This document shows, one piece after another, positions 3,419-14,859 of a stretch of DNA of 64,000 nt. A model generated the notes under the pieces. It saw only the letters and a program-made list of their open reading frames with translations, was not told where the DNA came from and searched no databases. The stretch lies in contig CAWDSK010000001.1 in assembly GCA_963804995.1 (NCBI GenBank), positions 224,001-288,000 on the forward strand. The letters run 5' to 3'. Position 1 is the stretch's first letter; every line of letters begins with the position of its first letter. Made by a program: the position numbers and the translations under genes. The DNA comes from an uncultured Acidobacteriota bacterium. GTDB lineage: Bacteria; Acidobacteriota; Terriglobia; UBA7540.

Positions 3419-4924
3419 TTATTCATTATTCTCTGTCATCTTTTCGCCGAAAATCAAGCTGGCTTCTTTTTCATTATGTATGTACGTTGGGGGAGACCCC
3501 TCAAGTCGGAGCCTCTTTTCCCACGCAACTGTGTTACCGTCGGGCCCCTTCCTTGTGACCATTGAAAAGAGCTTCATGTACAGACGGGGGGCAACTCCTA
3601 CGTATGGCGTAAACCGTACTTTATCATGTAGAGCTGCCTCATCAAAGGCAATTGCGTCCTGGTGGAATTCTTGAGCCAGACTTTTGGGATAAGGCTCAAT
3701 GTAAACAACCCGATCAATTCCCGCAGCGATGATATGCCGCGCGCAATCATGGCACGGGTAGGTGGTCGTGTATAAGGTACATCCCTTCGTTGGTACCCCT
3801 CGGCGCGCTGCGTCAAGTATGGCGGTCATTTCAGCGTGAACTGAGCGCCCGTATTCTATTGCCCGCATAATCTGTGCACCTGCCATCAGCAAGGCCGCTT
3901 CACTTCTTCGCTTATCCCGATCCATTTCGGTTTTGTCCTTCGTAAACCAAGTACTGCCGTCATTACAAAATCTTTCAAGAATTTCGGAAAGGGTCATGCT
4001 TTTCAGCTTGTCGCTAGTGTCATAACCGAGTTTGAAGTCCCGCATGTCCGGTTTATCATCGGGCCAATAAAGTCCTCCACCCGATTTAGGAACCTCATTA
4101 CAACCCATCGCAACAATTTCACCCTCAGGTGTCGAGATGGCTGCTCCAACTTGTCGGGCCAAAGAAGAAGAACGAAGGGCAGCACCTTGGGCGTGGAACA
4201 TCCCATACTCATCCTGCGTAGGGGTGTGGTAGGCATAACCGAAGAGGAGTTCCACAAACCTTCCAACTGACACCTGTAGTCCATCAGCATCACTCGCATT
4301 AACAAATACATCGGCGGCGGGGAAGGTATCTTTAACCTTTTGGCCAAATGGCAGCCCGCTCTCTTCCTCGTCACGATTTATCAACTTTTCAGCCTTATCC
4401 CGAAATCGACTAGAGTATGCTGAGTCTTCGGACTGAGCAATGTCAGCAGCAAGCTTCTTTACTCGGCTCTCACGGGGCGAATATGCTGAGACGAGAACGA
4501 AAGCCTCGCCGTACAACTTCCGGAATCGCTGGACTTCTTCGGGATGCTTTAGAGATCTAAATACGTACGCACAGTTCGGAATCAACTTATCGGCATTCTG
4601 TTCGGGATCCTGTTCCTTGCGAAACTGCCGAACCTGACCGACTGCAAAAAGGGCAAGCCCATCGCCTCCGACCTTTTCCCGGAACGAATCGCCTGCGTCC
4701 ATATGGGTCGCGTATCTCTCGAAAAGTGGCTGTTTAACCAATTTATTGCCCCATTTTGTGTTGCGCAGGAGTTCAATCAGGCGGATGGTACGGCATGAGT
4801 AATCGACTCCCAAAAGGGAATTTGCCAGGGTTTGCTCAACCCGGGTTAGGTCAGTGCCGACTGCACCCACGAGGCCGATAAATAGTTCTGCTCCATCAGC
4901 GGATATTTGACTGCCTGTTGACAT
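3419..4924 (-). CDS. Anti-phage dCTP deaminase (P-loop kinase-like N-domain + dCMP/dCTP deaminase; AvcD/Dcd-like)
   Basis: N-terminal ELFIGLVGAVGT, RSLKHPEEV, RQVGAAI, NEVP, zinc motifs VHAE and PCHDC, YIEPYPKS; visibly lower GC than flanks. Confidence 0.88.
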   Translation of the reverse strand: MSTGSQISADGAELFIGLVGAVGTDLTRVEQTLANSLLGVDYSCRTIRLIELLRNTKWGNKLVKQPLFERYATHMDAGDSFREKVGGDGLALFAVGQVRQFRKEQDPEQNADKLIPNCAYVFRSLKHPEEVQRFRKLYGEAFVLVSAYSPRESRVKKLAADIAQSEDSAYSSRFRDKAEKLINRDEEESGLPFGQKVKDTFPAADVFVNASDADGLQVSVGRFVELLFGYAYHTPTQDEYGMFHAQGAALRSSSLARQVGAAISTPEGEIVAMGCNEVPKSGGGLYWPDDKPDMRDFKLGYDTSDKLKSMTLSEILERFCNDGSTWFTKDKTEMDRDKRRSEAALLMAGAQIMRAIEYGRSVHAEMTAILDAARRGVPTKGCTLYTTTYPCHDCARHIIAAGIDRVVYIEPYPKSLAQEFHQDAIAFDEAALHDKVRFTPYVGVAPRLYMKLFSMVTRKGPDGNTVAWEKRLRLEGSPPTYIHNEKEASLIFGEKMTENNE

Positions 4925-7665: not shown

Positions 7666-8962
7666 CTACTTCCCAAACACCCGCTCGAAAATCTCATCGA
7701 CGTGCGTCAAGTAACGCTCCACCTTGAACACTTCGGCAATTTCGGAAGGCTTCAGATACTGGCGGATGTCGGGGTCGCGCTGCACCAGGGTGCGATAATC
7801 CTCGCGAGTCTCCCAAACTTGCATGGCGTTGCGCTGCACCCAGCGATAGGCATCTTCCCGCAGCGCGCCCTTCTCAACCAAATCCAATAATAACTGTCCA
7901 GAAAAAATCAGCCCCTTTAACAGGTCGAGGTTTTCGCGCATGCGCTCCGGATAGACGAACATGGTCTCGACGAGCTGCGCCGTCTTGGCCAGCAGGTAGT
8001 CAAGCAGAATGGTGGAGTCGGCCAGGATCACGCGCTCGAACGGAAGAGTGGGAGATGTCGCGTTCGTGCCAGAGCGCCACGTTTTCAAGTGCCGCCTGGG
8101 CGTTCGACCGCACCACGCGCGCCAGCCCGCAAATCTGCTCCGCCGTAATGGGGTTGCGCTTGTGGGGCATGGCGGAGGAGCCTTTTTGCTGGGGCGAGAA
8201 ATACTCTTCCACCTCGCGGACTTCGGTGCGCTGCAAGCCGCGAACCTCTAGCGCAATTTTCTCAAGCGAAGCAGCCGCGACGGCGAGCGTCGAAAGGTAA
8301 AACGCGTGCCGGTCGCGCTGGATGACCTGCGATGAAACGGGCGCCGCCTCCAGCCCCAACCTTGCGCAGATTTTCTTTTCGATGGAGGGCGGCAGGTGCG
8401 TGTAACTGCCCACGGCGCCCGAAATCTTGCCGACGCGCATCTGCTCCGCGGCGTAAGCGAGGCGTTCGGTATTGCGCTGATTTTCCGCGTACCAGATGGC
8501 GAGCTTGCAGCCGAAGGTGATGGGCTCCGCATGGATGCCGTGGGTGCGGCCGATCATGGGAGTGTGCTGAAACTCGAAGGCGCGCTTTTTCAGAACTTGG
8601 CCCAAGCGGTTCAGGCCAGCGATCAGCAGGCTGGAGGCTTCGCGCACCAGCAGCGCCTGCGCCGTGTCCACCACGTCGTTGGAAGTGAGCCCGTAGTGCA
8701 GATAGCGGCCCTCGCGGCCCACGTGCTCCGCCACGTTGGTGGTGAAGGCAATGACGTCGTGCTTCACCTGGCGCTCGATCTCCAGAATGCGCTCCACCTC
8801 AAACCGCGCTTTCTTGCGGATAGCGCGCGCCGCGGCCTTGGGAATCAACCCGGCTTCGGCTTCGACCTCCGCCGTGGCGATCTCAATGTCCAGCCATTTC
8901 TGAAACTTGTTTTCGTCCGTCCAGATGCGGCCCATTTCCGGGCGCGTGTAGCGGGGAATCAT
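7666..8962 (-). CDS. purB: Adenylosuccinate lyase (single-base frameshift near 8039, probably a sequencing error)
   Basis: [41 protein letters not shown]-terminus continues in ORF 7666-8088. Confidence 0.92.
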
Positions 8963-9092
8963 AGGTTTTTCGATTTGCGATTTTGAATTTGCGATTTCGC
9001 CGGAACCAAGCGGCGAACCGCAGACGAAATCCTACCACAAGAGGAGCGAGTTGGGACAAGTCAGGTGTGAGTAGTGAAAAGCTGGCGTAGCG

Positions 9093-11005
9093 GTTGCGGT
9101 AGGGATACCGGTTACCCGGTACCCCCCGCACGGATCCGTACGTGCGCTGGTTAGCGCATACGGCTCTTATCTCGGATGTGTGGCGGCGAACCGTTGGGAT
9201 GGCCAAGGATGCACAACGTGCGGAGCAGGCAACCAGCAGGCCGCAAGCTTCCCCAGTCGGTCCCAGTTGAGGCGGTGGCGTTGACTGCGTTGACGCAGTT
9301 GTGTTCGCCACAGTCGGGTCAACCGTTCCCGAAAGATTCGCAGGCGGTCGAGGTTTCCCGGTACCGCGTGATAGTTGAAGTAGCCTTGCACGACCGACCG
9401 GAGCCATTTACCCGTATCCGCGATGGGATCGTGCCGACGCTGCCGGAGTTGTTGCTTGAGTTCCTGCAACTTCCCCCGCAGGCGCTTGCTGATCGTCTTC
9501 CGCTTCACGGTAAATTGCCCCCTCCGGTTCTTCCCGCTGATATGCGTGAAGCCCAGAAAGTCGAACGTCTCCGGCTTACCTTCTCCTCTCCGTTTCCGGT
9601 AAAGTTCGGCAAACGGCCCGAACTCGATCCGGCGCGTTTTGTCAGGATGCAGTTCCAATCCAAACTTCCCCACCCGCTCCCGGAAATCCTCCAGAAAGCG
9701 GTCGGCTTCCGTCTGCGATTGGAATCCAAGGACCGTATCGTCGGCATACCGCACCACGACCACGTCTCCCCGGGCGTGCTTCTTGCGCCACGCCTGCACC
9801 CACAGGTCAAAGACGTAGTGCAGATAGATATTCGCCAGCAGGGGCGAGACCACCGCCCCTTGTGGCGTACCCATCTCCGTCTCCGACCATTCGCCTTCCT
9901 CCCTCACCCCGGCTTTCAGCCATTTCTGGATGAGCCGGAGAATCCGGGGGTCGGCGACGCGATGCTGCACGAACTTGAGCATCCATTCGTGGGATATCGA
10001 ATCGAAAAATCCACGAATGTCCGCGTCAAGAACGTAGTTCACGTGCTTCACCGTGAGCGCGTACGAGAGCGCGTCCAGCGCTTGATGCTGGCTGCATCCC
10101 GGTCGAAAGCCATACGAGAAGCCCAGAAAGTCTTCCTCGTAAATCGCCTTGAGGATGGTGACCACGGCCTGTTGGACGATCTTGTCCTCCAGTGCCGCAA
10201 CCCCCAACGGACGTTGCCGCCCGTCGCCTTTCGGGATATACGCCCTTCGCGAGGGCTTCGCTCGGAATGCTCCGCGGTGGACCCGGCTGTGCAGATCGAC
10301 GAGTCGACCTTCCAGCCCGCTTTCATACTCCTGCCACGTCATGCCGTCTACTCCCGGTGCAGCTTTTCGCTTCAAGGCGTAAAAGCTTTCCCGCAGCAGA
10401 TCGACCGTTAAGTGGTGGAGCAAGGCCGTGAACTTCATCTCCCTGTGTTCCTTCGCGGCTTTCCGCACACCCGCGAGTCCCTGGGACACGCGTGCCCCGC
10501 TCTGTGTCGGGTGCGTGTTAGGCCAACGGGTGTTCTCCTTGATCAGCGGCCTTCCCTCTTCATTCTCCGCCAACGGCTTCCCGTCTTTGTTCAAATGATT
10601 CATCGGTACTGTTCCACTGTCCGACTCCTCGAGAGCGTGCAGGCGGGCTGTACGGCCATCGCCTTTTCCCGCCGTCCGGCCACGATCTACGGCGGCCGGC
10701 GCCTCCGAGGTCTCCCGGTTCTCGTGCAGAAAGTGTCTAGGCGTGTCTGGGGTCTACGACTACGCAGGACTGTGCCGGAACTCGCGTTGGCGTCCCGGCC
10801 TCATGTTGCCTTCCGTTTAGTCTGAAAACGTCGGCGTCCTGATTGGACATTTTCGAAGCTCAATACCCAGCCCACCTATTCCCCTGTTTACGCTTCACCG
10901 TGCGCCTCACGACGCCCAGCGCAAAACTCGGGGCCGAGTGGATCGCTGCTCCTTCCTCGTGAGAAATTTTCATTCTCTGCTTTCTGCCGGTTTATCCCGG
11001 CGCAC
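9093..11005 (-). mobile_element. Complete group II intron (1913 nt)
   Basis: 5' end GTGCG at 11005; domain V GAGCCGTATGCGCTAACCAGCGCACGTACGGATC at ~9133-9166; domain VI ending ...CCTACCGCAAC at 9093; encloses the RT ORF. Confidence 0.92.
9167..10603 (-). CDS. ltrA: Group II intron reverse transcriptase/maturase, no endonuclease domain
   Basis: AAPGVDG, RPLGV, FSYGFRPG, DADIRGFFD, GTPQGAVVSPLLANIYLH, YADD, FDFLGF; true start may lie downstream of 10603. Confidence 0.95.
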   Translation of the reverse strand: MNHLNKDGKPLAENEEGRPLIKENTRWPNTHPTQSGARVSQGLAGVRKAAKEHREMKFTALLHHLTVDLLRESFYALKRKAAPGVDGMTWQEYESGLEGRLVDLHSRVHRGAFRAKPSRRAYIPKGDGRQRPLGVAALEDKIVQQAVVTILKAIYEEDFLGFSYGFRPGCSQHQALDALSYALTVKHVNYVLDADIRGFFDSISHEWMLKFVQHRVADPRILRLIQKWLKAGVREEGEWSETEMGTPQGAVVSPLLANIYLHYVFDLWVQAWRKKHARGDVVVVRYADDTVLGFQSQTEADRFLEDFRERVGKFGLELHPDKTRRIEFGPFAELYRKRRGEGKPETFDFLGFTHISGKNRRGQFTVKRKTISKRLRGKLQELKQQLRQRRHDPIADTGKWLRSVVQGYFNYHAVPGNLDRLRIFRERLTRLWRTQLRQRSQRHRLNWDRLGKLAACWLPAPHVVHPWPSQRFAATHPR

Positions 11006-11117
11006 CAGACCTCCGTCGTTGAGGTCTGCGGTTCTTCCTCAGATTCTAGAACCGAACCCTTTCCGCGGGATCACCCGTAAAGACGCAGACCTCAAGGGCG
11101 GAGGTCTGATGCGCTAC
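11006..11117. repeat. GTAG-type REP/REPIN-like palindromic element interrupted by the intron (its first 6 nt, GTAGCG, lie at 9087-9092)
   Basis: GTAGCG|CAGACCTCC...GAGGTCTGCG...CGCAGACCTC...GGAGGTCTGATGCGCTAC; intact relative at 12250-12388. Confidence 0.8.
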
Positions 11118-12249: not shown

Positions 12250-12388
12250 GTAGCGCGGACCTCCGTTTTTGAGGTCCGCGGCTCTTCATGCAAAAAAACT
12301 CAGATCTCGATGATGGGGGCTGCCCTCGGATTCGGTGGCGTGAATCTAAGGAAGAACCGCAGACCTCAAAATCGGAGGTCTGCGCTAC
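12250..12388. repeat. Intact REP/REPIN-like double-hairpin element
   Basis: GTAGCGCGGACCTCC...GGAGGTCTGCGCTAC inverted ends. Confidence 0.8.
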
Positions 12389-12758
12389 CCGGGCTGGCGT
12401 GAGCAAGGACTTTTTCATTTTGCATTTTGCCTTTTGCCTTGCTTTTGCGGCTCCGCCCCGCTGCGCAACCCCCTCAAGGCTCAGGACTCGTGAACCAACT
12501 AGTGCCAAACCCGCAAATCCCTAACCCCGAACCCCTAATCCCTGCCCCCTGGCACTTATCTTATGATCGCCTGCCCCTGCGCTCCATCATGGTCCCGCCC
12601 GCAAGCCGTCACAGCCAATATGACCGTGCCCCACAAAATGAGTCACTCTCCACCATGTCCTGCATTGTCGCTGCCTGAAAACCTATGCTAGGATGGCAGA
12701 TTGCTTCGAGCGCAGCCGTGCCATTCTACTCTTAGCCTCATGGTTTGAAGGAGCTCTG

Positions 12759-14859
12759 GTGAAAATCTACGAAGGCGAAAACATTCGTAATGTGGCACTG
12801 GTTGGCCACGGGGATACAGGAAAAACGCAGCTCGTTTCGGCCCTGCTCTTCACCGCGGGCATGGTGAACCGTCTGGGCAAGGTGGACGAAGGCACGTCCG
12901 TCACGGACTACGACGAGGAAGAAATCCAGCGCAAGTTTTCCATCAGCGCCTCGCTGGCTTACGCCGAGTGGGGGAAGACGAAAATCAATTTCATCGATAC
13001 GCCCGGCTACAACATCTTCATGCACGAGACGGAAGCTGCGCTGGTGGCCGCTGATTCCGCCCTGCTGCTGGTGCACGGCGTGGCCGGCATCGAAGTGCAG
13101 ACGGAAAAGGTTTGGGGATTCTGCGAAAAGTACGGTCTGCCGCGCGCCCTGGTGATCAACCAGTTGGATCGCGACCGCGCCAGTTTTGAGCGCGCGCTCG
13201 AAGCCCTGCGCGGCGCTTACGGACGGGCCGTGATTCCCGTGCAACTGCCCATTGGCGAGGAGAAGAATTTCCGCGGCGTCGGTGGACCTGGTCGCGGATG
13301 AAGGCTTATCTTTACGAACCCAACGGCTCCGGCAAGGCCAAGGAAGCGGAAATCCCCGCCGACCTCCAGGACGCCGCCACCAAGGCCCACGAAGCGCTGG
13401 TGGAAATGGTGGCGGAAGGCAACGACAAGCTGATGGAGGAGTTCTTCGAAAAGGGCACGATCCCCGTGGAGGACCTGGTGCCGGGCCTGAAGCAGGCCAT
13501 CGGTGAAAGGCGGATCTATCCCCGTGGTGGTTGCCGCCGGACTGCTCAACATCGGCAGCGAGACCTTGCTGAATTTCCTGGTGGATTACCTGCCGTCGCC
13601 GCTGGAGCGAGGCGAAGTTGAGGGCCTGGACCACGAGGGCGGCCAGCCCGTCAAGCGCAAGATCGCGGACGACCAGCCCGTCTCCGCCTACGTCTTCAAG
13701 ACGGTCGCCGATCCCTTCGCCGGCCGCGTCAGCTACTTCAAAGTGATGTCCGGCGTCCTCAAGAACGAAGCCAACCTGACCAATTTCAATCGCGGCTCCT
13801 CGGAGCGCCTCTCCCACATCAGCGTGGTGCAGGGGAAGACCCAGAGCGCCGTGGCCGAACTCCACGCGGGGGACATCGGCGCGGTGGCCAAACTGAAAGA
13901 TACGCTGACCGGCGACACGCTGGGCGACAAGTCCGCGCCCATCGTTTACCCCAAGGTCAAAGCTCGCCGAGCCCGCCATTTCCTTCGCCATCGAGCCCAA
14001 GTCGCGCGGCGACGAGGACAAGCTTTCCACCGCCATCCACCGGATGCTGGAAGAAGACCTGCTGCTGCGCTTCTCCCGCGACCCGCAGACCAAGGAATTC
14101 CTGCTCTCCGGCGCGGGCCAGCAGCACGTGGAAGTGGCGGTCTCGAAACTCAAGCGGCGCTTCAACATTGAGGTCTCGCTCAAAGCGCCCAAGATTCCCT
14201 ACCGGGAGACGATTCGCGCCAAGGCCGATGCGCAGGGCAAACACAAGAAGCAGACCGGCGGCCATGGCCAGTACGGCGACTGCTGGATCAAGTTGGAACC
14301 CCTGGCGCACGGGGGCGGTTTCGAGTTTGTGAACGACATCTTCGGCGGCGCCATTCCGCGCAACTTCATTCCCGCCGTCGAAAAGGGCATCATCGAGGCG
14401 GCGGCGAGAGGCTATCTGGCCGGTTACCCGGTGGTGGATTTCCGGGTCATCCTCTACGACGGCTCCTACCACGACGTCGATTCCTCGGAAATGGCCTTCA
14501 AGCTGGCGGGCTCCAAGGGCTTCAAGAAGTGCATGGAGCAGGCCAAGCCCTGCCTGCTCGAGCCCATCATGAACGTGGAGATTACCGTTCCGGAAAATTA
14601 TTCCGGAGACATCATGGGCAACCTGAATGGCCGCCGGGGCCGCATCCAGGGCATGGAGCCGAAGGGCGGCTCAACCGTCGTCAAGGCCCAGGTGCCGCTG
14701 GCGGAAATGCTCACTTACGCCTCCGACCTCACCTCCATGACCCAGGGCCGCGGGACGTACTCCATGGAAATGTCGCACTACGACATTGTTCCGCAGATGA
14801 TCGCTGACAAGATCGTCGCCGCGCACAAGCCCTCTGCCACCGAAGAAGAGGAAGAGTAG
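12759..14859 (+). CDS. fusA: Elongation factor G (EF-G2-type paralogue), split by several frameshifts (~13280-13295, ~13510, ~13960)
   Basis: IRNVALVGHGDTGKT, DTPG, KKQTGGHGQYG, DGSYHDVDSSEMAF, LTSMTQGRG across successive frames. Confidence 0.9.

Follow-up and report, generated by a model that had tools for sequence, protein, structure and literature searches.

The window analysed here, a stretch of 64,000 nucleotides from an uncultured Acidobacteriota bacterium, carries a group II intron on its minus strand, flanked by a metallo-beta-lactamase-fold gene and by purB, both of them also on the minus strand. The intron begins with GTGCG at 11005 and ends with CGCAAC (terminal AAC) at 9093, and it shows the hallmarks of group II, namely a GUGYG 5′ end, an AY 3′ end, and domains V and VI with a bulged A. 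Its parts, each with the evidence behind it, are the following:

9093–11005, minus strand: group II intron of class E, 1913 nt (Rfam, ends, BLAST copies, protein tree)
9096–9129, minus strand: domain VI, with the bulged A at 9100 as predicted branch point (fold)
9133–9166, minus strand: domain V, the catalytic hairpin with its AGC triad (fold)
9167–10603, minus strand: intron-encoded reverse transcriptase/maturase of 478 aa, with YADD at residue 286 and without endonuclease domain (open reading frame, profile searches)
10757, minus strand: EBS3, G, intron nt 249, pairing with the +1 C (covariation)
10814–10830, minus strand: Id3 stem-loop CGTTT-TCAGACT-AAACG, 5-bp stem and 7-nt loop (fold, covariation)
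10819–10824, minus strand: EBS1, CAGACU, intron nt 182–187 (covariation)
10846–10849, minus strand: likely EBS2, UGUC, intron nt 157–160, pairing with exon −9 to −12 (weaker covariation, with a register that varies among relatives)

Domain V, with its AGC triad, is the catalytic motif of group II introns. Domain I matches the Rfam model RF02005 at 10750–10970 with 170 bits, and the stem-loop sits at the Id3 position of this model. The reverse transcriptase matches TIGR04416 with 342.5 bits (cut-off 300), and a Pfam scan of the protein returned RVT_1 alone; since only 37 aa remain beyond the TIGR04416 match and the protein has no CxxC, it lacks an endonuclease domain. Excision of the intron leaves GTAGCG|CAGACCTCC on the plus strand, which is the end of an intact repeat lying at 12250–12388. 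The original prediction, drawn from the letters of this DNA, had proposed the intron at 9093–11005, the restoration of a repeat end upon its removal, a reverse transcriptase without endonuclease domain, and a 5′ exon ending in GGTCTG that pairs with the CAGACU of the loop through one U-G pair; ends, excision, profile searches and fold bear out these points and all the coordinates given with them. The first base of the loop, the U at 10825, is the presumed δ nucleotide; a partner for it was sought among the relatives and none was found, as that U is invariant. As to the other contents of the window, purB and an EF-G-like gene (7666–8962 and 12693–14859) are frameshifted and split over several frames, probably through long-read indel errors, and positions 3419–4924 (minus strand) encode a 501-aa protein that fits the PADLOC dCTPase model (anti-phage dCTP deaminase, E 1e-156).

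The repeat interrupted by the intron and those next to it are:

9087–9092, plus strand: REP foot GTAGCG, the 3′ exon CGCTAC on the intron strand, whose first base C is IBS3 (sequence, invariance at 37/37 sites)
11006–11030, minus strand: remainder of the interrupted REP hairpin (sequence, fold)
11084–11117, plus strand: the other REP of the inverted doublet, longer by three bases (11109–11111) exactly at the would-be insertion position of the intron (sequence)
12250–12388, no strand: REP doublet, intact and without intron, from the family of the occupied one (sequence, fold)

In the interrupted hairpin, IBS1 (GGTCTG, 11006–11011) belongs to the 3′ arm, the 5′ arm occupies 11021–11030, and IBS2 (GACG, 11014–11017) falls inside the 7-nt loop. 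The intact doublet folds as one long palindrome (z = −6.9, with 0/200 shuffles as good). The 16-base REP arm has 185 matches in the genome at two mismatches or fewer, arranged in doublets and tandem arrays, and a genome census counted 579 perfect-stem REP hairpins bearing the two feet. Two REP families are occupied by the intron, a CTAC-ending one (GTAG on the other strand) with 23 sites and a mostly CCAGC-ending one with 14 sites. There are 14 Y1 transposase matches in the genome, two of which, at C5:58461 and C6:722534 (contig and position), were covered by a scan with the RAYT model NF047646 (cut-off 80) and gave 111.9 and 117 bits, respectively. Both of these RAYT genes are flanked, in inverted arrangement, by the two families, and the intron fills one flanking REP at each; further Y1 genes have flanking REPs that share the foot and differ in the stem. 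As far as sequence can identify them, the repeats hit by the intron are RAYT-associated REPs: short palindromes with a conserved unpaired foot, present in many extragenic copies, in doublets and arrays, and at the flanks of RAYT genes. They are like the GTAG-type REPs with RAYT/TnpA(REP) of PMC8266576 and PMC3733652, in the available text of both papers, in their GTAG foot, palindrome, inverted doublets, tandem arrays and flanking RAYT genes, whereas the second family described here ends in GCTGG. In PMC8266576, the available part describes in vitro assays of binding and cleavage of single-stranded REP DNA by RAYT.

A BLAST search of the whole genome recovered 40 copies of the intron, all more than 99% identical, 38 of them complete and two cut by contig ends. 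Ends of contigs C2, C6, C7 and C9 fall in or beside intron copies, and the real number of copies may therefore be other than 40. Of the copies, 37 have 1913 nt and carry a mean of 3.4 differences, which indicates a recent burst, although consensus noise may account for some of these differences. The 5′ flank is readable at 38 copies and always ends in RGTCYG, the 3′ flank at 39 and always begins with CGCYA; where both flanks are readable (37 sites), positions −5, −4, −3, −1, +1, +2, +3 and +5 are invariant (+1 C, +2 G, +3 C, +5 A), and every one of these sites lies in a REP-type hairpin, one of which has two stem mismatches. The insertion point is in the 3′ arm, two base pairs above the foot, and a register common to 40 copies is not the product of chance. 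The idea that the intron exploits a multicopy, abundant repeat as its homing site thus held in the flank table, where the 40 copies share one register in two RAYT-associated REP families and none lies at an unrelated site. As to the safety of the site, which the original prediction had also supposed, the position of the junctions agrees with it in that 32/40 fall outside a crude ORF mask. The upstream gene has the same orientation as the intron in 21 cases and the opposite one in 14 (five not scored), without a clear rule. From these sequences, a real natural case of group II intron homing into REPs is well supported. That a mis-assembly multiplied one repeat-flanked intron seems to us extremely improbable, in spite of the four copies at or near contig ends, the frameshifted purB and EF-G genes, which are a sign of long-read errors, and nine shared variants that assort freely among copies (27/36 pairs are four-gamete incompatible), as consensus noise or gene conversion could cause: the copies are dispersed, differ in their 3′ flanks and are oriented in relation to the fork (see below), and in sister genomes, whose EBS1 is different, the choice of site is the same.

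The guide sequences were located by covariation in 98 distinct domain I sequences of relatives, which are not independent of one another and hold many different EBS1 sequences. Positions 182–187 pair with exon −1 to −6 in 82–93% of cases, against an expected 26–46%, which places EBS1 exactly in the stem-loop where the original prediction had put it, and position 249 pairs with +1 in 93% (70% expected). EBS1 and EBS3 match the site in the window and covary with the exons of the relatives. An EBS2 signal directly after CGAAA reached a score of 2.97 against 2.23 ± 0.07 in shuffled sets (0/500), with 77/98 relatives parsed. Occupancy points the same way, as the EBS2 core is present at 31/36 occupied and 145/252 empty hairpin sites (p = 8e-4), and a T at −2, which pairs with EBS1, is favoured over C (19/116 vs 4/105 filled, p = 0.003). 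In the perfect-stem census, 34/240 REPs with RGTCYG stems are filled and 0/339 of the same-foot REPs with other stems; the opposite arm of the same palindrome, where CGG comes next, is used at 0/345 sites. A matrix built from −12 to +5 finds 205 hairpin sites and 12 others genome-wide, so that this 17-base target is nearly confined to REPs and reading of the sequence would suffice.

By its sequence, the intron is a member of class E, without endonuclease (En-minus). Two introns that the supplement of PMC8919778 assigns to class E have proteins 58% and 53% identical to the one in the window, and its identity to the class C, D, F and CL1A references is at most 35%. In a FastTree phylogeny with one or two references per class, the kind of check that the original prediction had suggested for assigning the class, it forms a clade with both class E references (support 0.91). 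The grouping of the protein, the missing endonuclease domain and a strong EBS1 and weaker EBS2 that pair with the 5′ exon are features of class E; an extra Id3 bulge and a 5-nt domain V loop are named as further traits of the class in the available part of PMC3753933. Membership of class C (IIC) was discarded, with 31–35% identity to two class C references, which fall in a separate clade, and with six covarying EBS1 positions plus the EBS2 signal contradicting a short EBS1 and no EBS2. The analogy first drawn with introns that target terminators or attC sites therefore stands for the strategy and fails for class C membership; a need for the folded hairpin would be a possible further parallel.

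The orientation of the copies follows replication. Raw GC skew was too weak for calling replichores (26/40 copies), so gene-balanced third-position skew and dnaA were used instead. On contig C2, the two copies to the left of dnaA are on the minus strand and the three to its right on the plus strand; on contig C6, 15/15 copies are minus, although the plus strand has more of the empty sites (45 vs 21). Within segments whose skew exceeds 2 SE, the sense strand of the intron coincides with the G-rich, leading strand in 19/20 copies, C3:231098 being the lone disagreement. The full strand table gives 36/145 against 1/166 filled REPs, and it includes C1, C7, C9 and half of C5, where the skew is within 2 SE and strands were set after the intron strands had been seen, so that 19/20 is the independent figure. 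On the leading-strand-sense strand, 18/48 and 13/26 EBS1-perfect sites are filled. The lagging-strand template is the preferred target of En-minus introns of the RmInt1 type, according to the available text of PMC4615759, and an orientation that is linked to the fork and flips at dnaA fits reverse splicing into that template.

This strand bias also bears on whether the intron landed only once in a REP and was then copied, together with the repeat, by RAYT transposases or recombination. Three copies do adjoin a RAYT gene or a fragment of one, some copies share their flank (29 different flanks among 38), and one of nine intron variants is nominally linked to REP family (p = 0.023, uncorrected). 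However, the other eight variants show no link to family, the same intron occupies two REP families whose cognate RAYTs differ and whose loops vary, occupancy follows the EBS1 match, and the REPs are about evenly divided between strands while the introns are not (36 to 1), which makes such passenger spread very improbable.

The most plausible explanation, and one that we hold with reasonable confidence, is ordinary retrohoming by conventional sequence recognition at the fork, the hairpin being a by-product of the target and not a required signal. EBS1 (6 nt) and EBS3 (1 nt) would match the REP site, EBS2 (about 4 nt) would likely add pairing at −9 to −12, and the protein would read the invariant GC-A at +2 to +5, as RmInt1-type proteins read distal exons. 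Judging from the orientation, the intron RNA would reverse-splice into the single-stranded lagging-strand template, and the nascent lagging strand would prime the cDNA, as for other En-minus introns. The RAYT-associated families would supply about 300 mostly intergenic targets, allowing a recent burst that would have filled about 40% of the best sites.

A rather unlikely alternative is that the intron particle recognises the folded, single-stranded REP itself, with EBS2 taking a toehold on the loop and EBS1, a copy of the 5′ arm, then displacing that arm, in a hairpin-reading mode outside class C. The location of IBS2 in the 7-nt loop and of IBS1 in the stem agrees with it, as does the lagging-template bias, this being where single-stranded hairpins can form. 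Moreover, the core motif GTCYG|CGCYA is used at 36/288 hairpin sites and 1/161 others (p = 1e-6), and even that exception sits in the two-mismatch hairpin. Non-hairpin sites that pass a −12 to +1 matrix are used in 0/218 cases, so RNA pairing alone fails to explain the choice and a sequence model needs a protein-read 3′ exon; on the other hand, 155/218 of these look-alikes lie in ORFs, where selection would purge insertions. The non-hairpin sites passing the full −12 to +5 matrix are only 12, all of them empty, with about two occupied expected and a chance of none of about 0.11 by hand calculation. Also contrary to recognition of a folded target are the near REP-specificity of the sequence alone and the lack of insertions in the other arm of the palindrome. 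A preference for weaker hairpins found no support in the source genome, nor is stem stability a predictor of occupancy, as occupied and empty sites do not differ in energy (p = 0.32).

Sister introns at stem-broken or hairpin-free sites argue in the same direction. In G018, the closest sister, 90% identical and present in six copies, has the EBS1 CGGACU and resides in a GG(T/G/C)CCG (GGTCCG-type) REP; five of its six sites are changed at −4, breaking both the stem and an EBS1 pair, while 31 perfect sites are empty, and the filled fractions of 4/9 and 1/32 (p = 0.006, two of those sites sharing a 5′ flank) suggest a preference for weaker hairpins in that genome. The three copies of the sister in G021 are placed differently: one is in a REP, another has just the 5′ half of a REP, and the third has no hairpin. 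For the favoured explanation, the hairpin poses a difficulty in splicing, since the precursor RNA is predicted to form the exon hairpin (−12.2 kcal/mol) in preference to the EBS1-IBS1 pairing (−6.3 kcal/mol), hiding IBS1 from EBS1. Public runs yielded contigs of relatives, none of which bridged the intron; as a spliced junction and an empty REP read alike, contigs assembled from RNA cannot reveal splicing.

A wider survey of 184 distinct insertion sites, from relatives and in a few cases from the source genome, gives 29 with IBS1 in a hairpin stem against 4.2 expected by chance, and 27 of the 29 fall in two lineages. Loci of the unpublished genomes L118, L126 and L127 were left out. That the whole family homes to REPs was discarded, as hairpins are absent from the large clusters, which comprise 45 and 17 sites. 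The second of the two lineages, also of class E, has a 5′ start GATAGCG and mostly the EBS1 CAGAGC, and it is found at 12/12 loci, in 10 genomes, at the 3′ arm of GCTGG-type (REP-type) hairpins, one of these loci being a 5′ remnant in the source genome (C1:441118). Its stem and EBS1 change together (CAGAGC/GCTCTG, CATAGC/GCTATG), and it lies mostly on the strand opposite to that used by the intron of the window. In quick trees, with the hairpin group named after the first tree had been seen, the hairpin label needs four changes, and a single clade of six proteins is rejected (p-AU 4e-46); these sequences are compatible with repeated gains and also with a single gain followed by many losses. 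The recurrence of hairpin-arm sites in separate class E lineages with different stems is what a structural preference would give likewise and counts against recognition by sequence; the second lineage, the excess of hairpin sites over chance and the rejected single origin speak for reading of the hairpin. In its widest form, which appears doubtful to us, class E introns would have repeatedly evolved a fourth target mode, reading folded REP hairpins at the fork with EBS2 as loop toehold and EBS1 as copy of the 5′ arm, so that each lineage would track the stem variant of one RAYT family and introns and RAYT-REP systems would co-diversify; the bacterial group II target specificities listed in the available text of PMC4424553 are three, homing sites, terminators and attC. 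Many non-REP relatives also have 3′ exons that start with C(G/T)C, and a preference inherited for such exons may pre-adapt the group to the REP foot.

Other introns turned up in the same searches. Class E relatives with extended, non-canonical 5′ ends (GAAAGCG, GTAAGCG, GATAGCG) occur at L002, L012, L087–L093, L110, L112, L131, L132, L169 and L235–L247, where EBS1 pairing puts the splice site two bases further out than in the GTGCG types. A sister lineage (L003, L004, L011, L018, L106, L136) inserts after a non-hairpin motif like GAAAACAAAGGxAGTT, seemingly another dispersed repeat, and is represented in the source genome by 5′ remnants only (C1:206552, C2:652257, C6:158095, C7:25746). The source genome also has a class F-like family of six copies, two of them head to tail (C6:293857–296970, C1:25397, C4:160586, C5:1086931, C5:1126081), at sites mostly ending in TTTGGCGAAGGAG, which are not REPs, and a third intron family, whose three copies follow GCAATTCTCA-like sites. 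Class E introns without an ORF, about 650 nt long, intact at their ends and presumably mobilised in trans, are found at L004:809, L063:3100, L093, L094, L216–L218 and L283, some of them in REPs. Finally, the relatives L030, L174, L176, L054 and L067 are 5′-truncated by a seemingly identical element inserted at an identical point.

With known class E introns, the element shares protein identity, the lack of endonuclease and the layout of EBS1, EBS2 and EBS3, and it departs from them in targeting a dispersed REP family and in reaching 40 copies in one genome. RmInt1 and RmInt2, class D introns that enter insertion sequences (available part of PMC4615759), are likewise En-minus, biased to the lagging template, and dependent on three RNA guides plus a distal exon read by the protein, as would also be the case here; RmInt2 multiplies its sites through IS inverted repeats (same source). 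Unlike them, the present intron is of class E (34% identity), and in place of an IS it targets a short, non-autonomous palindrome that is present hundreds of times. The class C introns at terminators and attC sites, as far as covered in the available text of PMC4424553, are also En-minus and also use multicopy, mostly intergenic, hairpin-forming targets, whereas here EBS2 is present, IBS1 lies inside the stem and not after it, and the target sequence is fixed. The insertion sequences ISPpu9, ISPpu10 and ISPa11 (available part of PMC1525189) provide another example of one mobile element inserting specifically into REPs, by means of DNA transposases and not of an RNA-guided retroelement. In the mostly open-access literature, in its accessible portions, we found homing of group II introns into REPs described only in a table row of PMC1525189, the sole ‘intron’ of its main text, with a Pseudomonas putida KT2440 group II intron that is 2/9 REP-associated. 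The accessible portions of PMC2936281 and 10.64898/2026.09.22.753630 yielded no link between introns and REPs, and in the available text of PMC7923331 the hairpins that precede truncated class E introns at attC-like sites are a matter of speculation.

The case described here indicates how the dispersed repeats of another element, when taken as target, let a strict homing intron multiply to 40 copies. With about 300 near-identical targets in one genome, 37 of them scored as filled, it amounts to a natural selection experiment that separates the effects of EBS1, EBS2 and strand. Whether an intron outside class C needs, tolerates or suffers from a DNA hairpin is directly testable in this system, and so is splicing when the exon-binding site is locked in an exon hairpin. 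For the genome that harbours them, forty 1.9-kb repeats inside REPs would seed rearrangements, and they may knock out substrates of the RAYTs.
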